Shown one piece after another: positions 15,606-41,547 of a stretch of DNA of 64,000 bases. Numbering within the stretch: the first letter of the stretch is position 1; each line of letters opens with the position of its first letter. The notes under the pieces were generated by a model, which was not told where the DNA came from, did no database searches, and saw only the letters and a list, made by a program, of their open reading frames with translations. Made by a program: the position numbers and the translations under genes. The DNA comes from an uncultured Lachnospiraceae bacterium (GTDB taxonomy: Bacteria; Bacillota; Clostridia; Lachnospirales; Lachnospiraceae): assembly GCA_905233905.1 (NCBI GenBank), contig CAJOFN010000001.1, positions 266 to 64,265 of the forward strand, read 5' to 3'.

Positions 15606-16289
15606 TCACAGACTGTATTTCTTACAGAGATAATATTTGGAAAAAGCGGTTCTGAAAAGCCCCTGCATCTGAATAGCCTGCTGGATAAATGAGGGGAGAT
15701 ATTCGTCGTATTTTACCTCGAGAAGATGGGTGCCGGCAGCCGTGACGGGACGCATCGCAAGCCTTTCTGCAAAGAAGCTGTCAAAGTCTACAGAGGAAGA
15801 AATATTCTTATCAAAGGTTATCCTGACATTCCCAAGATCATATATATAAGGAGTTCTGTCATAAACGGTTATGACAGAGGGAGTAAAGAGCTTCGTACCT
15901 CTTAACGCTTCAAATTCACGCAGCAGCTCTTTGCCGGTTTCCCTGATACCGGTTCCGTGTATAAGGGCATCTGCTTCATCCCGGGTAAGTATGCAGCGGT
16001 CTTTATGTGTCATCCCGTGAAGCTTGCTCTTTTTTTCAAGGAAGATCGCGGCATCAGAATGATCATATATCCGTATCCGCCACTTGACCCTGCGGTCGAA
16101 ACCGCCTTCATTGTCATGGTAGCACGAAAGCATGGCGTCATCAAAATAAAGGCTTAAAATTCGATATTGACGGCCCTCGCCGCTTTCGGCATGCATATCC
16201 CTTGGAATAATTGCATCCAGTCTGGCTTCAAGTATAGATAGCATCCCTGCTGTTACAATGAATTTGTTTTCGTGACGGTAGTATGCCAT
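15606..16289 (-). CDS. VTC-domain protein (triphosphate-tunnel / polyphosphate-polymerase-like)
   Basis: The sequence shows a periodic pattern of charged beta-strand residues typical of the Vtc4 tunnel fold: HENKF, RILSLYFD, VKWRIRIY, FLEKKSK, LLEVKYD. Confidence 0.65.
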   Translation of the reverse strand: MAYYRHENKFIVTAGMLSILEARLDAIIPRDMHAESGEGRQYRILSLYFDDAMLSCYHDNEGGFDRRVKWRIRIYDHSDAAIFLEKKSKLHGMTHKDRCILTRDEADALIHGTGIRETGKELLREFEALRGTKLFTPSVITVYDRTPYIYDLGNVRITFDKNISSSVDFDSFFAERLAMRPVTAAGTHLLEVKYDEYLPSFIQQAIQMQGLFRTAFSKYYLCKKYSL

Positions 16290-16292
16290 AGC

Positions 16293-16973
16293 CTAAAATA
16301 CCGCCTCTCCGTCATGCTCTAAAAGGGATGCGGTTTCTACTGCCTTTAGCTTTATTATCTCGTGAACAAGCGCCTTGCCCTCTGAGGTGCGCATCTCAAT
16401 GGTCATGTTAATGCCGGTTTTGGTAAGGTTGCGCGCCTTTACGGAAAAGCTTTCAGCATGTTTGTTGACAGCGTGAAGCACCTTGTCCTCCACCTCCTCG
16501 TCCTCTAAGGAAGCATTTACAACAAGAAGCTGTGGCGCCTTTGAATCAGGTATCTGTTCAAGGGCGAAAATTCCCAAGGTAAGCACCACTGAAAGGATAA
16601 TGGCATATTCAGCGTGTCCGGCTCCGCAAATTATACCGATACTGATGGACCAGAATAAAAACATCAGATCCATAGGGTCCTTTATCGCGGTTCTGAACCT
16701 TACGATTGAGAGGGCACCGACCATTCCCAGGGATACCATGATGCTTGAGTGGATGGTTATGATGATGGCTGCCGTTATAACGCAGACTCCGGCAAGAGAT
16801 ATATTAAAACTCCTTGAATAAAAGGTGGATCTTGTCATCCATCTGTAAACAAAAAATATGTATACTGCCAGAACAGCCGATACAGATATGGTTACTGCTA
16901 CGTCAGCGACTGATATGGTGGTATTGGCCCACCCCTCAAGGAATGAATGTTTGAAAATATCCTGAAATGTCAT
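16293..16973 (-). CDS. DUF4956-family membrane protein
   Basis: Four or five TM helices and the GALSIVRFRTAIKDPMD motif I associate with DUF4956, plus a soluble C-terminal domain of about 75 aa. Confidence 0.6.
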   Translation of the reverse strand: MTFQDIFKHSFLEGWANTTISVADVAVTISVSAVLAVYIFFVYRWMTRSTFYSRSFNISLAGVCVITAAIIITIHSSIMVSLGMVGALSIVRFRTAIKDPMDLMFLFWSISIGIICGAGHAEYAIILSVVLTLGIFALEQIPDSKAPQLLVVNASLEDEEVEDKVLHAVNKHAESFSVKARNLTKTGINMTIEMRTSEGKALVHEIIKLKAVETASLLEHDGEAVF

Positions 16974-18703
16974 TGCGCCTCCTTTGGCTGTTTTTTCAGA
17001 TACAGATATATATCACCACGAGGAACGAAGGGCTGATCGTATTCTTCGCCGGTTTCGTTATCATACCATACCGGCTCGGCAATATCATAATAGCCTGCAT
17101 CCGGGAATTTGTCGAACATATTTCCGTCCTTAACCTCGTATTCCCTGATCTTGCCCCGTTCTTCGGGCTCTATTCCCACAATGTGATAGGTTGATCCATT
17201 GATCCACTTGTCATCCATGACATGAATACGGGCATTTATGTATCTTTTTACCGCGGCTATGGCACTTTTTAAATCCTTGTGGGTATATCCCACAGGAGGT
17301 ATAAAGGGCTGGCATCTGTAAAAATTATTGACGTTGGCGGAATATAGCCTGTCTGACAGCTCGTCATAGCCATCCTTTACAAGAGCTTCTAACAGAGGGC
17401 GAAGCTCTTTTTTGTAAACCTTTGCGACATGCTTTCTAAATGCAGGCTTTTCAAACAGAGCCTTGTAGTACGGAGTTACCACATTCCTCCGTCTGTACGT
17501 GGCAGCAGCCGCAAAAAGATAAGGCTCATCAACAGAGTCCTCCTGCATGAAAGCCTTGTCATAGTCCCACACCGGACCGCCGTATATCTTAAGCCTGCCG
17601 CTATCCTCCATGGCGTACATATAGCTGGAAAGCTTGTCGGCATCAAAATTGCCTGAAAATTCATCTATGAGATATTTTTTTGCCCAGGAATCCATGTCAA
17701 TAATGGTTTTCCATTCGCTGCCGGGATAAAAGAAGGAGTCCTCCATTTGCTGGATCGTATCAGAAATCTCAATCAGGGTATCATCATCGTAGTTTTCCGG
17801 CTCAACTACCTGTATGGCTATATCCTTTGTGGTCATATAGTCCGCTTCGTCATCTCTTTTGGCAGTTTCCTGTTCAACTACGAAATCAGCCTCCTTGGAT
17901 ATGCGGTTGTCGCCCTTTTCGATCTTTTCCGTGATCAGGTAAAGCCCGTTATATCTGCCGTTTAAATATACATCAGCATACTCACCCTTCACAGACCATT
18001 CAGAAAAGAGTTCGTTTGAAAGGTCGTATATTATCTTATTGCGCATATTGGTGGCATCATAGGCGTTGGCGATCAGAAGCCATTTTTTGGCGTCGCCCAT
18101 CCCAAGAATACTGCGGGACTTGTCAAGCTTTATCTGATAGGGCTTTTTATCTGCCAGCCAGGTTGAGTTGCCGTGGCCCTTAATTGTGGCGGAAAGCTCT
18201 CCCGTGCTTTCTTCTCCGTCCTCTGAAATGAAATTAGCGGTAGCTTTTTCCTTGCGGTCTTTGTTTTTGGTAATATAGTAGTCCTCATCTTTGACAGTAA
18301 CAAAAAGCGCCGCAACGTTTTTGGAGCTGTGAAAGGTAAGGGTATAATCAGCATCCCCTATCCTCAAGGTATAGGGCTCGTCAAATTCCTTGTCAGGGAA
18401 GCTTTTGCCGGTTTTTATCGGTCTTCCGTCAAATATTAGCCACTTGGTGCCGTTTACTCGCAAGATCAGATCTGACAGCCTGCCGTAAGAGGGCAGAAAC
18501 AGATCGTAATCGCCGTCAGGATTCTTCCACGGAATAAGGGTATCTCTTATGCCTGAATGAACAAGCTCGAAATAAAAGGGCTCGTCTTCATTAACGCTCT
18601 TATCGTCATGGACATCAAGATACACTCCGTAGACACCGGCAAAGGCAAACATTACGGTAAATATGATGATGATATAGGAAATCCTGCGTCTGTTCAATGG
18701 CAA
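16970..18703 (-). CDS. CotH-family atypical protein kinase, N-terminally membrane-anchored
   Basis: GHGNSTW...KKPYQIKLD and NGRYNGLYLI blocks are typical of CotH. The N-terminal RRR plus one TM helix predicts that the bulk of the protein is outside the cell. Overlaps murI by 10 nt and DUF4956 by 4 nt. Confidence 0.75.
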   Translation of the reverse strand: MPLNRRRISYIIIIFTVMFAFAGVYGVYLDVHDDKSVNEDEPFYFELVHSGIRDTLIPWKNPDGDYDLFLPSYGRLSDLILRVNGTKWLIFDGRPIKTGKSFPDKEFDEPYTLRIGDADYTLTFHSSKNVAALFVTVKDEDYYITKNKDRKEKATANFISEDGEESTGELSATIKGHGNSTWLADKKPYQIKLDKSRSILGMGDAKKWLLIANAYDATNMRNKIIYDLSNELFSEWSVKGEYADVYLNGRYNGLYLITEKIEKGDNRISKEADFVVEQETAKRDDEADYMTTKDIAIQVVEPENYDDDTLIEISDTIQQMEDSFFYPGSEWKTIIDMDSWAKKYLIDEFSGNFDADKLSSYMYAMEDSGRLKIYGGPVWDYDKAFMQEDSVDEPYLFAAAATYRRRNVVTPYYKALFEKPAFRKHVAKVYKKELRPLLEALVKDGYDELSDRLYSANVNNFYRCQPFIPPVGYTHKDLKSAIAAVKRYINARIHVMDDKWINGSTYHIVGIEPEERGKIREYEVKDGNMFDKFPDAGYYDIAEPVWYDNETGEEYDQPFVPRGDIYLYLKKQPKEAQ

Positions 18704-19479
18704 TGCTCCCGGTGGCTATAAAACAATTCCTCAGAAAGCTTTTGCTTTTCCTCTGACTTATCTGAGTTGCGAAAGCATATGGTTCCCTCACCTGCTCCGG
18801 AAGGTCTTAAAAGCCCGGCGTCAGATATCCGTCGCCTGAGTTCCTTTGCAGTGCCAAGGCTTCCGTCATAAATTTCCACATCACTTCCGATAACACGCTG
18901 TAAGCGCTTCCTGATGAAAGGATAGTGGGTACACCCCAAAACCACGGCATCCAGTCCACCGGACAGATAGGGGCTTAAGAGTTCGCGCAGGAAAGCTTCA
19001 ACCTCATCGGTATCAGCCTTACCACCTTCCACGTATTCCATAAGTCCAGGACATGGAAGGGGGATCACTTCGCAATCCCCCCCATACCGACTTAATAAAT
19101 TTTTGAATTTCTCCTCGCGGATGGTCATGGGCGTAGCCATTACAAGTATCCTGCCGCCTTCATGCTCTGTAACTGCAGGCTTTAATGCCGGCTCAATACC
19201 GACTATGGGAACCTCCGGGTATATCTCGCGCAGATCCTTAACGGCTGCAGAGGTAGCGGTATTGCAGGCAATAGCTATCGCCTTTGCCCCCTCATCCAAA
19301 AAATCCGCCACAAGCTCTAACACACGGCTTCTTACCATGTCGGTGCTTTTGGTACCGTAAGGAGCATTTGCCGAATCACCGTAAAAAAGAAAATTCTCAT
19401 CCGGCATTAGCCTGTGCATTGGAATAAGGACGCTGATACCCCCTACTCCCGAATCCATGACCGCAATAAAATCCTTCAT
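18694..19479 (-). CDS. murI: glutamate racemase
   Basis: VMDSGVGGISV, CNTATS and GCTHYP motifs. The start is placed at MKDFIAVMDSG (19479); the longer ORF would overlap pgm. Confidence 0.9.
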   Translation of the reverse strand: MKDFIAVMDSGVGGISVLIPMHRLMPDENFLFYGDSANAPYGTKSTDMVRSRVLELVADFLDEGAKAIAIACNTATSAAVKDLREIYPEVPIVGIEPALKPAVTEHEGGRILVMATPMTIREEKFKNLLSRYGGDCEVIPLPCPGLMEYVEGGKADTDEVEAFLRELLSPYLSGGLDAVVLGCTHYPFIRKRLQRVIGSDVEIYDGSLGTAKELRRRISDAGLLRPSGAGEGTICFRNSDKSEEKQKLSEELFYSHREHCH

Positions 19480-19486
19480 ATCATTA

Positions 19487-21169
19487 TCAGGAGAGGATGG
19501 GTTTACATGCCTCTGCCAGCTTATCCTTCTTAGCCTCTGCCTCTGCAAGATCCTTGCCCTTGGTGGTAAAGTATGTCTTGATCTTGGGCTCCGTACCGGA
19601 AGGACGTACTATTGTGGTGGAACCGTCCTCAAGTCCGTAGATAAGTACATTTGCCTTGGGAAGTCCTGTCTCTTCGGGCTTGTTGAAGTCCTTTACGGAT
19701 GTAACGGCAATGCCTGCGAAATCCTTGGGAGGATTCTCCCTTAAGGACTTCATGATGTCTGCCATCTTGTCCATGCCGGAAAGCCCGGGGAATTCAAAGG
19801 AATCAACCTTATTAAGATATCTGCCGTACTCTGAATATATCTCCTCAAGACGCTGCTTGATGGATGAGCCTATGCTGCGGTAATATGCAGCCATCTCGCA
19901 GATGAGCATTGAGCCGATAACGGCGTCCTTGTCACGGACATAGGGGCCGGCAAGGTATCCGTAGCTCTCCTCGAAACCGAAGATAAAGCGGTCAACCTCT
20001 CCTGCCTCTTCAAGCTGTGCGATCTGGTCTCCTATCCACTTAAAGCCTGTAAGGACGTGGCGCAGCTCAACTCCGTAATGCTCGGCAACAGCGTCTGCAA
20101 GAGGAGTGGAAACTATGGACATAACTGCAACAGGGCGCTCGGGCATTGTGCCTTTTTCGATGCGGCCTGCGCAGATATAATCTAAAAGAAGTACGCCCAT
20201 TTCGTTGCCGGATACCAGCTCATAGCTGCCGTCAGGACATTTCATCGCAATTCCTACACGGTCAGCGTCAGGGTCTGTTGCAAGCATGAGGTCAGCGCCT
20301 GTTTCCTTTGCAAGCTCCAGACCATACTTTAATGCCTCAAATATCTCAGGGTTGGGGTAAGGACAGGTGGTAAAGTAACCGTTGGGATATTCCTGTTCGG
20401 GAACTATGGTTATGTCTGTGATCCCCATATCGGATAAAACCTTGGTAACGGGTATAAGACCGGTACCGTTAAGCGGTGAATAAACCAGCTTAAGGCCTGA
20501 GCTTGCGGCAAGACCGGGACGAACCTGTCTGGATTCGATGGCTTCATAGAAAGCAGCCTTGCAGTCATCGCCAACAAAGCGGATAAGCCCCTTTTCCACG
20601 CCCTCTGCAAAGGAAATACGCTTTGCGCCTGTTAATATGTCGGTCTTCTGTATCTCGTCATAGACAATGGCGGCAGCGTCGTCAGTCATCTGGCAGCCGT
20701 CTGGACCATAAGCCTTGTAGCCGTTGTATTTGGCGGGGTTGTGGGAAGCTGTTACCATAATACCAGCGTTGCACTTGTAGTATCTTGTAGCAAAAGAAAG
20801 CGCCGGAACGGGCATTAACGCATCATAAATCCTTACGTTGATACCGTTGGCAGCAAGCACGCCTGCAGCTTCCTTGGAGAAGATATCGCTCTTGAGACGG
20901 CTGTCATAGGCAATGGCAACTGTCTGATTGCCGCCCTGGGTAAGTACCCAGTTGGCAAGACCCTGGGTTGCCTGTCTGACTACCCAGATGTTCATTCTGT
21001 TGGTGCCGGCTCCAAGAGTGCCGCGAAGTCCTGCGGTACCGAACTGCAGTGAAACAGCAAAGCGATCCTTGATCTCATCGTCATTGTCACGCACCTTGTT
21101 CAGCTCCGGCAAAAGATCCGGATCTTCAAGGTCAAATCCCAGCCAGCGTTCGTATTCCTCTTTATACAT
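19487..21169 (-). CDS. pgcA: phosphoglucomutase / phosphomannomutase family protein
   Basis: Active-site TASHNPAKYNGYK. The start at MYKEEYERW (21169) is preceded by GGAGGG. Confidence 0.85.
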   Translation of the reverse strand: MYKEEYERWLGFDLEDPDLLPELNKVRDNDDEIKDRFAVSLQFGTAGLRGTLGAGTNRMNIWVVRQATQGLANWVLTQGGNQTVAIAYDSRLKSDIFSKEAAGVLAANGINVRIYDALMPVPALSFATRYYKCNAGIMVTASHNPAKYNGYKAYGPDGCQMTDDAAAIVYDEIQKTDILTGAKRISFAEGVEKGLIRFVGDDCKAAFYEAIESRQVRPGLAASSGLKLVYSPLNGTGLIPVTKVLSDMGITDITIVPEQEYPNGYFTTCPYPNPEIFEALKYGLELAKETGADLMLATDPDADRVGIAMKCPDGSYELVSGNEMGVLLLDYICAGRIEKGTMPERPVAVMSIVSTPLADAVAEHYGVELRHVLTGFKWIGDQIAQLEEAGEVDRFIFGFEESYGYLAGPYVRDKDAVIGSMLICEMAAYYRSIGSSIKQRLEEIYSEYGRYLNKVDSFEFPGLSGMDKMADIMKSLRENPPKDFAGIAVTSVKDFNKPEETGLPKANVLIYGLEDGSTTIVRPSGTEPKIKTYFTTKGKDLAEAEAKKDKLAEACKPILS

Positions 21170-21261
21170 GTTCCCTCCTTCTATGCATGTGTTACTGGAT
21201 AAACAATACATTAAGTAGAATTTTAGCACAACGAGGCGTGGGTAACAAGTAGAAAAAGATG

Positions 21262-29523: not shown

Positions 29524-30959
29524 TACGTGAACCTCCGTGCCTGGCACAATAACACAACCTCATCCGATTCTCTTACAAAAAAAGCCGGACAATCCCGCAC
29601 TCCTACTGCCCAGAAAATATCCCTGCCGCTAAGCACTAAGGGTACATCCTTACGCTGCCTTACCGGAATACCTGCGTCAATGAAGATACGGGAAAGCTTT
29701 TTATGCTCGCCCCTGCCGGATATGACCATACGATCCCCCGGCAGAGGGAATCTTAAACATATATCTGCTATTCTATCATAACTGGTCAGAATATAAAAGA
29801 AATTTTCATCTGCCGGAGCCTCCGGCAGCATATTTTGACGCGTTCTTACTGAAAAAGTAAACTCATAGCCTGCAAATATCAGTTTTTTCTCCTCACCGTG
29901 CAGTGGTTTTTTGCAGCAAATTACCCCCGGGTCGGGCTGTTTATGGTCTTTAGCTTCATCGGCAGCTCTTATAACATCAATATATCCCCCACACTTTTCA
30001 ACAATATATCCGTCAGGAAGCTGGGCATAATGTCCGTGGGGACTTAAAATAAGCTTTTTTACAGCTTCTATACGCTCACTGCTGATGAATGTATCCCTTT
30101 TGACCCTGTCTGCAAGCCACCTGCGCATTATTTCACCAAAAAGCGCAGGATGAACGTTTATCAAGCCGCTGATCTTTAGTCTGTTATTATTATCTGATAA
30201 TTCTGATATTGCCTTATCCGCCTGACGCTCAATGTAATCACTTGTTATCGAGGCAATGGCGGCTAAATTGGCGATATGCTCAACTGCCCCTGGATTTTCC
30301 GCCTTAAGAGCCGGAATTATATTATGCCTTATGCGGTTTCTGGTGTAGGCATCCTCTTCATTGGTATGATCATTGCGCCAGGTCTCCCCCTGCCGACTCA
30401 GCCAGTCTTCAATTTCCGCCCTGCCAACACATAAAAGAGGATGAATAACGTCAATAGTGCCGTTTTCGACAGCTATACGAGCCTTTGGACTTATGCCGCC
30501 CATACCTTTGATCCCGGTGCCCCGTATCATGGAAAGAAGCACTGTTTCGGCAAGGTCATCTCTGTGATGCGCCAGCGCAACCTTGCCCTTGCCGTCAAAC
30601 AGCTTGCGCAGGCACCCGGCATAAGCCCTCTGGCGGACTATTCTGCCGGTTTCTTCGCTCCCTGTCTTCCATTTTGCGGCCAGGGCAGGCACATCCTCAC
30701 TTACTCCGTAATACATAACACCGAAGCGGTCACAGAGCCCACGGACAAAAGCCTCATCCTCATCGGCGAGACTTCCCCTTATACAGTGATTGACATGGAC
30801 TACGGCAAGTCTTAAGTCAAGTTCGGTCTTTAGCCTCATAAGCAACAAAAAAAGGCAGAGTGAATCTGCCCCGCCTGAAACTCCCGCTACTACAGCATCG
30901 CCCTTTTCTAACAATGCCTCTGACGTGATGTATGCTCTGATGGTATCTGTAAAATTCAT
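29523..30959 (-). CDS. tilS: tRNA(Ile)-lysidine synthetase
   Basis: PP-loop AGVSGGADS, 478 aa, synteny with hpt/ftsH. Confidence 0.9.
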   Translation of the reverse strand: MNFTDTIRAYITSEALLEKGDAVVAGVSGGADSLCLFLLLMRLKTELDLRLAVVHVNHCIRGSLADEDEAFVRGLCDRFGVMYYGVSEDVPALAAKWKTGSEETGRIVRQRAYAGCLRKLFDGKGKVALAHHRDDLAETVLLSMIRGTGIKGMGGISPKARIAVENGTIDVIHPLLCVGRAEIEDWLSRQGETWRNDHTNEEDAYTRNRIRHNIIPALKAENPGAVEHIANLAAIASITSDYIERQADKAISELSDNNNRLKISGLINVHPALFGEIMRRWLADRVKRDTFISSERIEAVKKLILSPHGHYAQLPDGYIVEKCGGYIDVIRAADEAKDHKQPDPGVICCKKPLHGEEKKLIFAGYEFTFSVRTRQNMLPEAPADENFFYILTSYDRIADICLRFPLPGDRMVISGRGEHKKLSRIFIDAGIPVRQRKDVPLVLSGRDIFWAVGVRDCPAFFVRESDEVVLLCQARRFT

Positions 30960-31252
30960 CGCTCCCGGAATATTATCTCATTGGGAGAAACCAGCCCCAG
31001 CTTGCTCTTGGCTGTATTCCTGGTGTATTCCTCGGACTTGGTGTACTGCTCGTAGTCAATAAGCTCCTGCTGGCGTTCCTTTTGATCGCGCAGCTCTTCC
31101 TCAAGAGCCTTCTCCCTTGCCATGTACTGCTCACTCTTGTGATGAAGGGATACGAGCTGCATCGCCATAACTACTGACAGAAAACCCACCATCAGCACAA
31201 TATAAAAGCGTCCGCTTCTCCTCTTGTCCTTACTACCGGAAATTTTCTTCAT
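30956..31252 (-). CDS. divIC: septum formation initiator (FtsB/DivIC family)
   Basis: 98 aa with one TM helix followed by a coiled coil (EELRDQKERQQELIDYEQ). Conserved position upstream of tilS. Confidence 0.7.
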   Translation of the reverse strand: MKKISGSKDKRRSGRFYIVLMVGFLSVVMAMQLVSLHHKSEQYMAREKALEEELRDQKERQQELIDYEQYTKSEEYTRNTAKSKLGLVSPNEIIFRER

Positions 31253-31330
31253 AAAATAAAGAGTTCCTCACACACACCACACAATAATCAAAGACATTTT
31301 ACACAAAATACAGTAAAATTGCAAGAATAA

Positions 31331-31570
31331 TCACAATATTTTGTACAATTCTGCGGCTTCGTCCTTCTTTGTCGTCTCTTTTATAGCCGTAACCATCACC
31401 TTTACCACCCTGTCGCCGAAGGTTATCTCGATAACATCTCCCTCTTTGACCTTGGCTGACGGTTTGACTACACTGCCATTCAGCTTAACTCTCTTTGCAT
31501 CACAGGCCTCTGCCGCTATGGTTCTTCGCTTAATAAGCCTTGAAACCTTTAAAAATTTGTCTATTCTCAT
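31331..31570 (-). CDS. S4-domain RNA-binding protein (YabO/Hsp15-like)
   Basis: MRIDKFLKVSRLIKRRTIA S4 motif, 79 aa. Confidence 0.8.
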   Translation of the reverse strand: MRIDKFLKVSRLIKRRTIAAEACDAKRVKLNGSVVKPSAKVKEGDVIEITFGDRVVKVMVTAIKETTKKDEAAELYKIL

Positions 31571-31620
31571 AATATATCGTCACTTTCCTGCATATCCTTT
31601 ATGGGGAAGGTATTTTCACA

Positions 31621-31661
31621 TGAACAAAAAGACTGTAACCTTATATCAGCTACAGTCTTTT
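31621..31661 (-). terminator. intrinsic terminator after hup
   Basis: Minus-strand RNA AAAGACUGUA-13 nt loop-UACAGUCUUU followed by UUGUU, 36 nt after the hup stop. Confidence 0.6.
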
Positions 31662-31696
31662 AAGTCCTTAAACAGTCTTTGCTATCTAAACAAAAA

Positions 31697-31972
31697 TCAG
31701 CCGTTTACAGCATCCTTTAAAGCCTTGCCAGCCTTGAACTTAGGAGCCTTGGAAGCAGGGATCTGCATCTCAGCGCCGGTCTGGGGATTGCGACCTGTAC
31801 GTGCTGCGCGCTCAGAAACCTCAAATGTACCAAAGCCTACGAGCTGGATCTTGTTGCCCTTTGTCAATTCCTGAGTAACTACTTCGATGAATGACTTAAG
31901 CGCACTCTCAGAGTCCTTTCTTGAAAGACCGGACAGATCCGCCATTGCTGCTACTAATTCTGATTTGTTCAT
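31697..31972 (-). CDS. hup: DNA-binding protein HU
   Basis: MNKSELV...GFGTFEVSERAARTGRNPQTG...IPASKAPKFKAGKALKDAV is a canonical HU sequence, 91 aa. Confidence 0.95.
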   Translation of the reverse strand: MNKSELVAAMADLSGLSRKDSESALKSFIEVVTQELTKGNKIQLVGFGTFEVSERAARTGRNPQTGAEMQIPASKAPKFKAGKALKDAVNG

Positions 31973-39018: not shown

Positions 39019-40356
39019 CTACATCATACCGCTGTTCATATACAGCACAAGAATCAGAGCCATATCCACCAGCATCTTGACCCCTCCGGTAAGCTGCGGC
39101 GCCAGAAACATCGCATACATCCCCGCAAGGGAGTCCTCATTCAAAAGCTTCTGCGATCTGTCATATAATACGCGGTTGCGCCTGATTATATCCGCGATCT
39201 GCATCCCTGCGTCTCCCCCTGATCCCTGGGAGATAGAATAAAGCATCTTCATGGAGGATGATATTTCAGGGATCTGAAACTCCGACAGGAAATTAAGATA
39301 TGGCTCTATCGCCTCAGGATGCTGCCTGATGTCCATGACAAAATCGGCTATTGCCGGCTTTAGTATTTCAGGCGCCATCGGCAATGATCTTTCCATTGCC
39401 ACTGCCACATTTTCCGTCTGAAGCAGCAGCGACAGCTCCATGAGCCATACGGGATACTGTTTTTCTATCTCTCTAACAAGCTTCTTTTTCCAGAAGGCCC
39501 TGCCTGCCATGCAAAAAACATCCTGTCTGTCCCCCGTAAAATACTTTTTGTATAACCCGGCGTAGTGAGAGTCCATGTCATGGTTGCTTTCTATCAGTCC
39601 GACAGTAAGCTTCTTGTCTGTGCGGTAAAGAATGACAAGATCGGCAATAAGCACCCCTACCGTAACCGCCCGGACATATATATTGCCGGAAATGTCTACT
39701 CCCATGCGAAGCGAAAGCTTAAATATCACGCCGCAGAGAAGCAGGGAAGCTATTATGGAAAATATCACGTCCCTGCGCTTTTTCCTCTGCTCCTGCTGCA
39801 GCACATACACTCTGTCAGCAAACATGCGCCTGTACTCTAAAAGCAGCCGAATGGATTCTCTGCAATCACCGCCCACCTGTTCGGTCGTAATTGCAAAATT
39901 ATGTATGGTCTCAACCCCGTCAAAGGGATAGGCCTTTGATATAATATCAAGTGCCCTGCCGCATACATTATCCTCCCTGTAGGTGTGCCAGATGTGATAC
40001 AGTGCCTCTGAAATGACGCTTTTCATCTGCCCCTCTTCAAATATGCTCCCAAGATCCTCTAATGTATCTAAAATCTTTCCCGTCCGTGCAAAGGAATACA
40101 AAAACTGCTCCATATAGACATTGAGATCGGAAAATCTCTTCTGATGATAGCGGTTTTCCGCCGTATTCCTGAGAAAAAGCGGCATAAAGGCTATACCTGT
40201 CACGCAAAGCACCGCCTGGGAAACAGCATCCAGCATGAACAGCTTTCCAAGGAGGATCAGGGACCAAAACATGCAAAGGCAAAGCATGGCACTCTTTTTC
40301 ATTGAAAAAACATATCCATATTTTTTGAGTTCAACCGATAGTGTTTCTGATCTCAT
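39019..40356 (-). CDS. polytopic platform protein, TadB/TadC (T2SS-F)-like, two repeats fused
   Basis: 445 aa. Two cytoplasmic helical segments are each followed by TM helices, the pattern of GspF/TadBC. It lies 21 nt downstream of the ATPase gene. Confidence 0.55.
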   Translation of the reverse strand: MRSETLSVELKKYGYVFSMKKSAMLCLCMFWSLILLGKLFMLDAVSQAVLCVTGIAFMPLFLRNTAENRYHQKRFSDLNVYMEQFLYSFARTGKILDTLEDLGSIFEEGQMKSVISEALYHIWHTYREDNVCGRALDIISKAYPFDGVETIHNFAITTEQVGGDCRESIRLLLEYRRMFADRVYVLQQEQRKKRRDVIFSIIASLLLCGVIFKLSLRMGVDISGNIYVRAVTVGVLIADLVILYRTDKKLTVGLIESNHDMDSHYAGLYKKYFTGDRQDVFCMAGRAFWKKKLVREIEKQYPVWLMELSLLLQTENVAVAMERSLPMAPEILKPAIADFVMDIRQHPEAIEPYLNFLSEFQIPEISSSMKMLYSISQGSGGDAGMQIADIIRRNRVLYDRSQKLLNEDSLAGMYAMFLAPQLTGGVKMLVDMALILVLYMNSGMM

Positions 40357-40377: not shown

Positions 40378-41547
40378 TCACATGATGCCCCGGAATGTGC
40401 CGATATTGTTACTTTTAAAGGGGATCATTTCAAAATCCTTTGGCTTCTGCTCAGCGCTTCTGACATATAAGGGCCTTTGCGCTGCCTCCCCCATGAATCT
40501 TGAAGCCATAAGCGGATCATTAACCTCCGCCCTTGAAAGCTTTTCTGAAAGGCTTTGGGGCAGGTCTCCTTTTAGCAGCTTTCCTTGATCCAGTATCATG
40601 TGGCATATATTTTTTCCGTCAGTTCTTTCAAAATATGCTATCTGGTCAATAAAACGTATTATGGATCGTCTTCCGTCTTCTCTTAGCATTTCCCGTCTTG
40701 TAATAAGTACCGCTATATCTATAAAGCTATAGATATCATTCTCCATACGGCTCTCATCCCGTTCCTGTCCCGCCATGTTGATCATCCTGTCAGGCAGCTT
40801 TCTCACATCGTCAGTATGAAGGGTGGTGATCCCCTTGACTCCTGTGGAAAAGCCTTCTATGAGCTTGATAACCTCCGTGGAACGGGTTTCTGAAAGCATC
40901 ATCCATTTGGGATTAAGCCGCAGGCAGGTCTTTATGGCCTCTGTATAATCCATCTGAGGGCTGACCTTAAGCTCCACGCAGTCCTTGTCGGGGCCTGTGC
41001 TCCTGTAATGCCATTCCGGAGTATCCTCAATGGTGATGACTCTCTGATCCGCCGGGATGAACCCTGAGAAAAACCTTGCACACTCTGTCTTGCCTGCGCC
41101 CGGTTCGCCGCAGAATACGATATTTGACCCGGATGCCACACAGCCCTTTAACAGCTCTAATACCTCCGGGCTGCAATAGCCGCTCTCTACCATGTTCTCC
41201 TCTGTCATACGGATATAGGGAAGGGATTTGCGGATGCAGATACTCCTTCCTGAGATCGCAACTGACTCATGAACTATGGTTATGCGCAGCCTGTCAGTTT
41301 CGGCTTCAAGCACCGGCTTTTGCTTGTTAAACGGCTTGCTCACGGTGTTTGCCACACGCATGGAAAACTGTTCTACAAAATCGGGGGACAATGAAAGAGA
41401 AGACGGATATCTGAGATTGGAGGTATCCGTAAGCCATATCCGGCTCCCGTTAAAATCGACATCAGTAATATCATCATTCATAACATATTCATACAAGGGG
41501 CCAAAATATGCCTCACTCTCCATAATCTCATTTCTTTTCTGATCCAT
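40378..41547 (-). CDS. type II/IV secretion-family ATPase (CpaF/TadA/VirB11-like)
   Basis: ITDVDFNG...RITIVHESVAISGRSICIRK N-domain, Walker A GEPGAGKTE, RVITIEDTPE Asp box, MLSETR Walker B-like motif and a His-box region TLHTD. Confidence 0.8.
   Translation of the reverse strand: MDQKRNEIMESEAYFGPLYEYVMNDDITDVDFNGSRIWLTDTSNLRYPSSLSLSPDFVEQFSMRVANTVSKPFNKQKPVLEAETDRLRITIVHESVAISGRSICIRKSLPYIRMTEENMVESGYCSPEVLELLKGCVASGSNIVFCGEPGAGKTECARFFSGFIPADQRVITIEDTPEWHYRSTGPDKDCVELKVSPQMDYTEAIKTCLRLNPKWMMLSETRSTEVIKLIEGFSTGVKGITTLHTDDVRKLPDRMINMAGQERDESRMENDIYSFIDIAVLITRREMLREDGRRSIIRFIDQIAYFERTDGKNICHMILDQGKLLKGDLPQSLSEKLSRAEVNDPLMASRFMGEAAQRPLYVRSAEQKPKDFEMIPFKSNNIGTFRGIM

Follow-up and report, generated by a model that had tools for sequence, protein, structure and literature searches.

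A CotH-DUF4956-VTC gene trio downstream of pgm and murI: a known module with a possible trans-envelope role

Introduction

What do a VTC-domain protein, a DUF4956 membrane protein and a CotH kinase do together when their genes lie side by side, downstream of pgm and murI, in a Lachnospiraceae bacterium? In bacteria, PPK1 and PPK2 are credited with polyphosphate (polyP) synthesis. VTC is still called the 'eukaryote-type' enzyme in a 2025 review (PMC12526157). The trio has already been described (PMC7112168; bioRxiv 10.1101/2024.04.20.589940; PMC2879425) and hence is not new; in the literature searched, no biochemical or genetic data were found on any bacterial member. The copy considered here lies in a 64,000-nucleotide stretch of DNA, which we call the window, and it is a member of the known module that differs from the Pel-operon set in its gene order, its pgm-murI setting and its absence of pel genes. 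Our preferred reading, to which we assign a probability of roughly 0.4, is that the trio forms a trans-envelope module, each compartment having one of its parts, in which VTC makes and DUF4956 passes a phosphoanhydride product that CotH may use.

Results

Gene layout and transcription

The genes pgm, murI, cotH, DUF4956 and VTC run in this order along the minus strand from 21169 to 15606, with junctions of +7, −4, −4 and +3 nt. The pgm gene (19487-21169, within an ORF at 19487-21229) encodes a member of the phosphoglucomutase/phosphomannomutase family with Pfam PGM_PMM domains I-IV, and its start is likely the ATG at 21169, with which the 560-aa orthologues of relatives agree. The glutamate racemase gene murI (18694-19479, within an ORF at 18694-19548; TIGR00067, E=3.6e-59, above the cut-off; Pfam Asp_Glu_race) likely starts at the ATG at 19479, 7 nt past the pgm stop. 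The pgm and murI enzymes both produce envelope precursors. Downstream are the minus-strand ORFs for CotH (16970-18703, 577 aa from a TTG), DUF4956 (16293-16973, 226 aa) and VTC (15606-16289, 227 aa). A second cotH TTG at 18697, 8 nt after GGGAG, is the more likely start, and its 575-aa product is identical to a protein-database entry (P0121). An earlier sequence-only reading of this DNA had described a 4-nt cotH/DUF4956 overlap and a 3-nt DUF4956/VTC gap, both of which are present (16970-16973 and 16290-16292), and a 10-nt overlap (junction −10) between cotH and murI, which holds only with the TTG at 18703; from 18697 the overlap is 4 nt (TTGA).

The trio lies downstream of pgm in a housekeeping region, and its translation is coupled to that of murI. 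Co-transcription with pgm-murI, as had been proposed, is plausible because the junctions are tight, no convincing minus-strand terminator was found from pgm to the end of VTC, and the 92-nt gap ahead of pgm contains a promoter-like site (TTGTTA-17-TAAAAT, TG-extended; 21220-21248, minus strand; low confidence). The whole promoter scan returned 14 sites against 9.8 expected from shuffles, which is not an enrichment. The transcription unit probably begins with pgm. The further suggestion that the trio is 'welded' onto pgm-murI needs qualifying, since in the closest relatives a gene for an MCP and a gene for a Na+/H+ exchanger sit between pgm, murI and cotH. Because of these intervening genes and the lower GC content of the trio (45%, versus ~50% for pgm and murI), the join is lineage-specific, and the reading in which pgm-murI belongs to the module itself was rejected. 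Elsewhere, pgm adjoins the VTC-DUF4956 pair in 9/80 unrelated loci, within glycopolymer clusters.

Linkage of the three families across genomes

A Pfam profile check bore out the three family assignments of the sequence-only reading (VTC, PF09359; DUF4956, PF16316; CotH, PF08757), all far above chance, and no NCBIfam model matched the VTC, DUF4956 or CotH protein. Each of the families of the Vtc4-like gene has more than 8,000 search candidates, and linkage was sampled in 80 genomic loci and 13 further loci. VTC and DUF4956 are adjacent in 80/80 genomic loci, and the adjacency holds despite the reversed gene order in the window's lineage. CotH is adjacent to the pair or at most 10 kb from it in 64 of the 72 loci with sufficient flank, and the other eight have the pair with no CotH nearby. 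A plasmid sample anchored on DUF4956 (Clostridia, Bacilli, Actinomycetota) has VTC adjacent in 5/6 records. The cross-genome linkage is strong, as had been anticipated. The families are common in gut Clostridia and the trio is widespread among gut bacteria.

Clostridia, Bacilli and Actinomycetota all have copies of the trio, mostly beside cell-wall or exopolysaccharide genes, with GT2, WbaP-like transferase, LCP, GtrA, YfhO, chitin-synthase-like GT and pgm genes as recurrent neighbours. On a Planococcus plasmid, six genes stand in the order VTC, membrane protein, CotH, large hypothetical, HEAT and chitin-synthase-like GT2.

These data bear on an explanation in which the three genes are co-regulated and mechanistically separate, with VTC making a cytoplasmic polyP store or stress polymer, DUF4956 acting as an MgtC-like regulator (of phosphate/ATP homeostasis, with a ligand sensed by ACT) and CotH being an independent secreted, ATP-dependent kinase that targets surface or host proteins. 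CotH is indeed separable from the pair, and 4/8 sampled CotH relatives lack VTC-DUF4956. A preprint on Streptococcus intermedius reads the genes in the same way, proposing that polyP remains cytoplasmic (bioRxiv 10.1101/2024.04.20.589940). This explanation, however, accounts neither for the 80/80 adjacency of VTC and DUF4956 in either order, nor for the usual third gene, an outward kinase without an obvious ATP supply, nor for the finding that genes for envelope polymers, and not those of the phosphate regulon, lie nearby. We consider it somewhat unlikely.

The VTC-domain protein

The VTC protein matches PF09359 over residues 5-220 (E=5.9e-34; 118 bits against a cut-off of 23), and its family profile matches yeast Vtc4 (3g3q) at E=1.1e-9. 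PDB searches with the single VTC or CotH sequence gave no match, and family profiles were needed. All five motifs that had been pointed out are there: HENKF at residues 6-10, SLYFD at 46-50, KWRIRIY at 69-75, LEKKSK at 84-89 and LEVKYD at 190-195. Nine Vtc4 residues are required for polyP synthesis (bioRxiv 10.1101/2023.01.27.525886), and the proposal that the protein keeps a Vtc4-type catalytic tunnel stood for six of them: K200, R264, R266, K281, Y359 and R361 align (hmmalign) to K9, R71, R73, K87, Y143 and R145, each invariant or at least 90% conserved among 31 homologues. The remaining three, E426, S457 and K458, could not be aligned, and a profile of the C-terminal 100 residues gave no alignment to Vtc4. 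By position, the invariant E191 and S217-K218 are candidates for E426 and S457-K458. Active Vtc4 carries S457-K458, and in the inactive Vtc2 and Vtc3 an Ile or Leu stands in place of K458 (bioRxiv 10.1101/2023.01.27.525886).

No hydrophobic segment was found in the VTC protein by hydropathy, and it has a single Pfam domain in its 227 aa. On this sequence evidence it is a soluble, stand-alone, Vtc4-like triphosphate-tunnel domain, predicted to be cytoplasmic, and it may make polyP. Its NCBI family name is 'polyphosphate polymerase domain-containing protein'.

Alternatively, VTC could be another triphosphate-tunnel enzyme (a tripolyphosphatase, a nucleotide triphosphatase or cyclase-like) that works with DUF4956 in signalling or non-polyP transport. 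The triphosphate-tunnel (TTM) superfamily is diverse, with substrates that, according to PMC9582702, include RNA, thiamine triphosphate and inorganic polyP. E426, S457 and K458 have no aligned equivalents, and OmpR-type two-component systems adjoin the pair in Enterococcus and Paenibacillus. Against this, the sequence falls in Pfam VTC and not in the CYTH families, and its invariant Ser-Lys lies close to the C-terminal end, as S457-K458 does in active Vtc4. A different triphosphate-tunnel activity seems to us distinctly improbable.

The DUF4956 membrane protein

The DUF4956 protein matches PF16316 (E=2.2e-14; 54 bits against a cut-off of 30.6) and is very highly conserved, with 60-85% identity among 32 homologues. 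It had been described as a polytopic membrane protein with the motif GALSIVRFRTAIKDP, and this motif is found at residues 86-100, with the invariant basic motif VRFRTAIKD at residues 91-99. Hydropathy, charge and the AF2 model predict ~5 TM helices (four or five) at residues 22-139 (16557-16910, minus strand). A predicted cytoplasmic, ACT-like domain (beta-alpha-beta-beta-alpha-beta) follows at the C-terminus (residues 148-219; 16317-16532, minus strand). The pLDDT of the model is moderate at 67 overall and ~80 in the C-terminal domain, for which Foldseek returned ACT, NikR C-terminal and MgtC C-terminal folds (7qa5, 2lqj; E ~1e-3).

This MgtC-like architecture and the C-terminal match are in keeping with the regulator that a mechanistically separate set of genes would contain, as is a weak Pfam MgtC score. 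That score (PF02308; 13.4 bits against a cut-off of 31.4, E=0.1) is below threshold and the hhalign comparison with E. coli YhiD was not significant (E=0.069, probability 0.8%), so DUF4956 is MgtC-like by architecture only. MgtC proteins, its closest kin in architecture, are regulators, not known channels. Passage of a product through DUF4956, as in the trans-envelope module, would be by analogy with the yeast VTC complex, to whose membrane domain DUF4956 has no homology.

The CotH kinase and the sporulation question

CotH matches PF08757 (E=4.1e-32, 112 bits), and its family profile matches B. cereus CotH (5jd9) at E=3.3e-11. In the AF2 model (pLDDT 88.8, pTM 0.86), Foldseek identified 5jda (E=5e-14, TM 0.71) and named the kinase core alone. 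The kinase domain occupies residues ~175-493 (17225-18181, minus strand) and is flanked in the model by beta domains at residues 43-137 (18293-18577) and 505-570 (16994-17191); Pfam gave no match on residues 30-143 and 492-577. The counterparts of B. cereus D224 (NFD) and D247 (WDYD) in the alignment are D354, which is conserved to at least 90%, and D380, which is invariant. These probably correspond to B. subtilis D228 and D251, given an offset of 4 to B. cereus taken from the numbering. The B. subtilis variants D228Q and D251A are inactive (PMC7821199).

The N-terminal RRR and TM helix that the sequence-only reading had noted are present within residues 5-29. A signal anchor is predicted at residues 9-29 (18617-18679, minus strand), with a +3 N-terminus, a 19-residue hydrophobic helix and then an acidic stretch. 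Because this anchor, predicted N-in, precedes the kinase, CotH should face outward, and an extracytoplasmic kinase domain, as had been claimed, is what the topology prediction gives. An N-terminal hydrophobic segment is present in 62/65 pair-adjacent CotH proteins, and a hydrophobic segment anywhere in only 1/69 VTC proteins. CotH relatives carry extracellular domains (SLH, Listeria-Bacteroides repeat, LTD, Fn3-type).

A spore-coat function, with CotH phosphorylating the coat proteins of the mother cell during sporulation, would fit the Pfam family and fold, both common to Bacillus CotH. The signal anchor and flanking beta domains, however, are missing from the 359-residue B. cereus CotH chain, the trio occurs in the non-spore-formers Streptococcus, Bifidobacterium (PMC7112168) and Enterococcus, and cotH is translationally coupled to the housekeeping gene murI. 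In addition, the canonical yabO-divIC-tilS region of the window lacks yabP, yabQ and spoIIE, as had been observed before: the order is HU, S4 (yabO), DivIC, TilS, Hpt and FtsH, with divIC 78 nt after yabO and overlapping tilS. The earlier doubt about a classical spore-coat role is well placed. We rejected a spore-coat CotH on topology, host range and genomic context, and regard it as extremely improbable.

Discussion

Proposed mechanism and meaning

For the trans-envelope module, the analysis establishes the families of the three proteins, the conservation of catalytic residues, the predicted topology and the linkage of the genes. We infer that the module makes polyP and moves it through DUF4956, and likewise what CotH takes as donor and as substrate, as follows. 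The soluble, Vtc4-type VTC protein would use ATP at the membrane's inner face to form polyP or a similar phosphoanhydride. DUF4956, with its MgtC-like bundle, cytoplasm-facing VRFRTAIKD and cytoplasmic ACT-like sensor domain, would be the obligate membrane partner that anchors the enzyme and passes or presents its product across the membrane. On the cell surface, the anchored, outward CotH would act on glycopolymers of the wall or on surface proteins, and the VTC product could be its phosphoryl donor. Characterised CotH enzymes use ATP, and we know of no polyP-dependent CotH. We consider it quite unlikely that the pair is a bacterial VTC-type synthase-translocase (Vtc4-like plus MgtC-like) that feeds surface polyP to a CotH ectokinase using polyP and not ATP.

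If the pair makes and exports polyP, it would be a second bacterial polyP route and might supply energy or phosphoryl groups beyond the membrane. The module would also give a role to the CotH of non-sporulating bacteria, including the Pel-adjacent and C. perfringens NELoc-2 copies, and a polyP-fed CotH would solve the problem of phosphorylation outside the cell, where ATP is absent. If not, the trio is still a clean, testable three-gene system.

Comparison with known systems

Among the accessory genes of Pel operons in Gram-positive bacteria are cotH, a 'poly-phosphate polymerase' gene and DUF4956 (Whitfield et al. 2020, PMC7112168), and their S. intermedius counterparts are SIR_1592-1594 (bioRxiv 10.1101/2024.04.20.589940). 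As in the window, the three families are contiguous on one strand and the predicted sites agree (secreted CotH, cytoplasmic VTC-like protein, membrane protein with ACT), but the window order is cotH-DUF4956-VTC rather than cotH-VTC-DUF4956. The preprint reports that the trio is not found outside pel operons, which is contradicted by the window and by the majority of the 80 loci; no pel (pelDEADAFG) or other exopolysaccharide genes were found in the 64-kb window. For this reason, dependence on a Pel operon was rejected.

C. perfringens NELoc-2 (CP4_0460-0465; Lepp et al. 2010, PMC2879425) has a VTC-domain gene, a gene for a 222-226-aa membrane protein and CotH in sequence, and then large hypothetical, HEAT-repeat and chitin-synthase-like GT2 genes, an order matched by the six genes on the Planococcus plasmid. 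The last three genes are missing from the window. The membrane protein, annotated 'tubulin/FtsZ GTPase' (PMC2879425), is presumably DUF4956, judging by its size and position.

Bacillus CotH (PDB 5JD9/5JDA) shares the kinase fold and both catalytic aspartates. In contrast, the window CotH is predicted to be membrane-anchored and extracytoplasmic, has extra N- and C-terminal beta domains and is encoded in a vegetative envelope operon where CotB/CotG-type substrates are not evident.

In yeast VTC, a TTM polymerase is coupled to a membrane channel via a positively charged path (PMC9911596). The eukaryotic complex (Vtc4/Vtc3 or Vtc2/Vtc1) and the trio share the Pfam VTC catalytic domain with six triphosphate-binding residues, and in both a cytoplasmic polymerase or polymerase-like part is tied genetically to a membrane protein whose cytoplasmic face is basic and conserved. 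The window VTC, however, lacks an SPX domain and a fused C-terminal 3-TM domain, and DUF4956 (~5 TM plus ACT-like) shares no homology with the Vtc1-type domain. The trio also adds a kinase that is predicted to face outward, and its product would be bound for the cell exterior rather than the vacuole.

The MgtC family (Salmonella MgtC, E. coli YhiD) resembles DUF4956 in having, as modelled, an N-terminal bundle of ~5 TM helices and a C-terminal ACT-like domain, but DUF4956 lies below MgtC sequence thresholds and MgtC has no linkage to a VTC gene. Fam20-type secretory-pathway kinases are signal-anchored, have an atypical fold and act outside the cytosol on secreted proteins or glycans, drawing on lumenal ATP. 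We know of no ATP supply for a bacterial ectokinase, which makes a polyP donor for CotH an unproven but attractive idea.

Organization of the pgm-murI-cotH-DUF4956-VTC region

Five successive minus-strand genes run from 21169 to 15606: pgm (ORF 19487-21229, likely ATG at 21169; Pfam PGM_PMM domains I-IV), murI (ORF 18694-19548, likely ATG at 19479; Pfam Asp_Glu_race, with TIGR00067 above cut-off), a CotH-family gene (16970-18703; Pfam CotH, E=4.1e-32), a DUF4956 gene (16293-16973; E=2.2e-14) and a VTC-domain gene (15606-16289; E=5.9e-34). Pfam thus clearly assigned the three families proposed by the sequence-only reading, each of which occurs once within the window. Downstream, azlD is convergent on the VTC stop. 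The successive junctions measure +7, −4 (or −10), −4 and +3 nt. The overlaps described earlier were right, except that the 10-nt overlap of cotH with the murI stop is more likely 4 nt, because an alternative TTG start at 18697, preceded by GGGAG at a distance of 8 nt, gives the 575-aa product of the protein-database entry. No convincing terminator was found between the five genes, and the only plausibly placed promoter-like site lies upstream of pgm, in a scan that was not enriched over shuffles. A single five-gene transcription unit is a plausible prediction. The region's best match to a promoter (17087-17115, minus strand; TCGACA-17-TATTAT, 10/12) falls inside cotH at its 3′ end, shortly before DUF4956, and could, as a consensus match only, be an internal promoter for DUF4956-VTC.

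The trio of cotH, DUF4956 and VTC had been described as welded onto pgm-murI. The tight junctions and the lack of a convincing terminator agree with that description; the window's relatives and base composition do not. In the closest relatives (L081-L084), pgm and murI are separated by a methyl-accepting chemotaxis gene, and murI and cotH by a Na+/H+ exchanger gene that shares a 4-nt overlap with cotH; the window has neither. GC content is 45% in the trio (15606-18703) vs ~50% in pgm and murI (18694-21169), with a window mean of 48.4%, so that the murI/cotH junction marks a modest compositional step. We therefore rejected pgm-murI as part of the module and read the join as a placement specific to this lineage, next to genes for envelope precursors. 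The flanks of the trio are housekeeping genes syntenic with the relatives.

VTC and DUF4956 form an invariant pair

To examine linkage across genomes, a VTC profile scan was run with one genome per species, and the best 80 of at least 585 loci were compared. These came mainly from Lachnospiraceae, Oscillospiraceae and other Clostridia, along with contigs labelled Solobacterium, Paratractidigestivibacter, Treponema and Bacteroidales MAGs. DUF4956 immediately adjoined VTC on the same strand in all 80 of these best loci, always in the order VTC-DUF4956, with a median spacing of 13 nt and overlap in many. CotH, counted so as to include its LTD-bearing subfamily, was directly adjacent in 59, within 10 kb in 5, absent from 8 and impossible to score in 8 short loci, which places it adjacent or within 10 kb in 64/72 scorable loci and bears out the proposed linkage. 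The window's closest relatives carry the order cotH-DUF4956-VTC, and since the order differs in this lineage, the pair has been kept together through rearrangement.

A second sample, anchored on DUF4956 by tblastn against plasmid records, returned GT2-cotH-VTC-DUF4956-GT4 in Pseudobutyrivibrio, VTC-DUF4956-cotH in Nonomuraea, and VTC-DUF4956-cotH-hypothetical (~685 aa)-HEAT-chitin-synthase-like GT2 on a Planococcus plasmid (L093:5286-12597). Enterococcus faecalis carries VTC-DUF4956-response regulator-histidine kinase-cotH (L097:5893-7912), and Paenibacillus carries VTC-DUF4956 (L095:1960-4070), where CotH was not found within 5 kb. An OmpR-type response regulator and a histidine kinase directly adjoin the pair in both of these distant Bacilli. 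On a Hymenobacter plasmid (L092:5998-8081) a distant DUF4956 without a recognisable VTC stands beside a TolC-family gene, a Bacteroidota case of DUF4956 next to an outer-membrane channel gene. In B. thetaiotaomicron, a DUF4956 gene and a DUF2490 gene (BT3498-99) are reported to change together under iron limitation (PMC10434189). In a CotH-anchored sample, the pair was present with 4 of 8 relatives. From these samples we conclude that VTC-DUF4956 is the core and CotH a frequent but separable third gene. The whole trio occurs twice in tandem at L021:5053-11380, and four other loci (L008, L022, L046, L064) have two tandem CotH paralogues upstream of one pair.

VTC and DUF4956 likely function as a single unit. 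An alternative is that the trio genes are co-regulated and have separate functions; the separability of CotH is in keeping with this, the unbroken pairing of VTC with DUF4956 is less so, and we consider it unlikely.

Predicted properties of the three proteins

The VTC protein is a single domain of 227 aa with no hydrophobic segment. A profile built from 31 homologues matched the catalytic domain of yeast Vtc4 (3g3q, E=1.1e-9), in which K200, R264, R266, K281, R361, K458, S457 and Y359 are required for polyphosphate (polyP) synthesis, as is E426 for Mn2+ (bioRxiv 10.1101/2023.01.27.525886); an R264A/R266A/E426N Vtc4 was used as dead enzyme (PMC9911596). By hmmalign, K200, R264, R266, K281, Y359 and R361 correspond to K9, R71, R73, K87, Y143 and R145 of the window protein, each invariant or at least 90% conserved across the family. 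Sequence alignment of the C-terminal part to Vtc4 was not achieved; there, the invariant E191 (LEVKYD) and S217-K218 (FSKYY) are candidates for E426 and S457-K458 by position only. The earlier claim that the Vtc4 tunnel residues are retained therefore holds by alignment for six of the nine, with positional candidates for the other three. Candidate K218 matters because the inactive Vtc2 and Vtc3 carry Ile or Leu in place of K458 (bioRxiv 10.1101/2023.01.27.525886). We regard a non-polymerase TTM activity for VTC as improbable.

Conservation is highest in DUF4956, at ~60% identity over evolutionary distances where VTC shows ~48% and CotH ~30%, and an almost invariant block covers SLGMVGALSIVRFRTAIKDPMDLMFLFW. 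Its AF2 model, of moderate confidence (pLDDT 67 overall, ~80 in the C-terminal domain), has helices at 22-47, 54-73, 77-96, 100-117 and 121-139 and, C-terminal to these, a beta-alpha-beta-beta-alpha-beta domain, for which Foldseek returned the NikR C-terminal, ACT and MgtC C-terminal (7qa5, 2lqj) domains at E ~1e-3. Sequence searches did not place DUF4956 in the MgtC family, and we therefore term the modelled protein MgtC-like in architecture only, a view reached by the S. intermedius authors via CDD and AF2 (bioRxiv 10.1101/2024.04.20.589940). The positive-inside rule favours five spans with the N-terminus out and the ACT domain in; the basic motif VRFRTAIKD faces the cytoplasm in 4-span and 5-span models alike.

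The CotH AF2 model is confident (pLDDT 88.8, pTM 0.86) and comprises a long helix (residues 5-38, enclosing a hydrophobic stretch at 11-29), a beta domain (43-137), a kinase core and a small C-terminal beta domain (505-570). The core matched the B. cereus CotH kinase 5jda (Foldseek E=5e-14, TM 0.71), and the family profile matched 5jd9 (E=3.3e-11), pairing D354 and D380 with B. cereus D224 (NFD) and D247 (WDYD). From the numbering, at a constant offset of 4, we infer that these equal B. subtilis D228 and D251; D228Q and D251A are inactive mutants (PMC7821199). The hydrophobic stretch has three arginines on its N-terminal side and an acidic segment on its C-terminal side (7 D/E vs 1 K/R), from which we predict an N-in signal anchor that leaves the kinase outside, as had been proposed. 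An N-terminal hydrophobic segment was present in 62/65 CotH genes adjoining a pair; the three exceptions had the lowest scores, and two lie near the start of their own locus. CotH relatives bear SLH, Listeria-Bacteroides repeat, LTD, Fn3-associated and CHB_HEX_C domains.

Genomic context

Near the pair, among the best 80 of at least 585 loci, we found GT2 glycosyltransferases (31/80), a WbaP-type sugar transferase (23/80), a LytR-CpsA-Psr ligase (22/80), GtrA (18/80) and phosphoglucomutase (9/80), with ABC transporter and methyltransferase genes also recurring. The recurrence of pgm is noteworthy despite its lineage-specific join in the window. Other loci place the trio beside YfhO and heptose-pathway genes, or beside a phosphodiester glycosidase (NAGPA) with an SLH anchor; directly upstream of cotH, the two loci L089:3655-5895 and L090:3353-6004 carry SLH-anchored NAGPA in one and a YfhO glycopolymer glycosyltransferase in the other. 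The neighbours in other loci are all cell-wall or exopolysaccharide functions, and the module very likely serves cell-envelope biology.

In L003, L029, L040, L052, L054, L060 and L065 (e.g. L065:6247-7716, L065:11295-12029, L029:1517-1915) the trio is embedded in a glycopolymer cluster that recurs in Lachnospiraceae. Three conserved, Pfam-negative genes of this cluster encode proteins of 489, 132 and 244 aa: the first has a kinase-like HGDLxxxN motif, the second is HAD-like and the third nucleotidyltransferase-like. The set resembles a kinase-and-nucleotidyltransferase route to a phospho-substituent.

No pel or polysaccharide-synthesis genes were found in the scanned window ORFs (64 kb; most ORFs of at least 150 aa). 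At 30956-31972 the order is HU, S4 (yabO), DivIC, TilS; yabP, yabQ and spoIIE were not found there, as would fit an organism that does not sporulate or that carries these genes elsewhere in its genome. Weighing this against the structural match to a Bacillus CotH kinase, we regard a spore-coat role for CotH as very improbable. A Pfam-negative 445-aa ORF (39019-40356) adjoins a T2SSE-type secretion ATPase gene (40378-41547).

Proposed function and comparison with known systems

Of the readings considered, the evidence best supports a vectorial system spanning the envelope, to which, as a whole, we assign a probability of about 0.4. The Vtc4-like enzyme would make polyP at the membrane, DUF4956 would anchor it and pass or present the product, and the outward-facing CotH may act on surface polymers or proteins. 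The sequence-only reading holds as an observation, and in part as an interpretation: family membership, the six aligned residues, predicted topology and linkage are established. Catalysis, transport, and the donor and substrate of the kinase we infer from them.

The trio itself has been reported before. Whitfield et al. (2020) noted cotH, a "poly-phosphate polymerase", DUF4956 and DUF4832 as accessory genes that are contiguous with the pel operons of Gram-positive bacteria (PMC7112168). A 2024 preprint on S. intermedius described SIR_1594 as a secreted CotH with FN3, SIR_1593 as cytoplasmic and VTC-like and SIR_1592 as MgtC-like with ACT, suggested that polyP stays cytoplasmic, and did not find the trio outside pel operons (bioRxiv 10.1101/2024.04.20.589940). 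Lepp et al. (2010) listed the genes of C. perfringens NELoc-2 and did not connect them (PMC2879425); the Planococcus plasmid shares a six-gene order with this pathogenicity locus, in which DUF4956 is putative: the membrane protein of 222-226 aa annotated there as "tubulin/FtsZ GTPase" is probably DUF4956 under a wrong label. A literature search found no experiment on any bacterial member. New here are that the trio is common outside pel operons, that VTC and DUF4956 are invariably paired across phyla, the variant gene order in the window, and a conserved predicted division of the three proteins between cytoplasm, membrane and outer face. We see the locus as another example of a widespread module, noticed before and uncharacterised, here with a variant arrangement and in a new setting.

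The closest known system is the eukaryotic VTC system. Eukaryotic Vtc4 has an SPX domain and a fused membrane domain, whereas the window VTC lacks both. Compared with that system, the trio has a different membrane partner, an added ectokinase and a different predicted target compartment.
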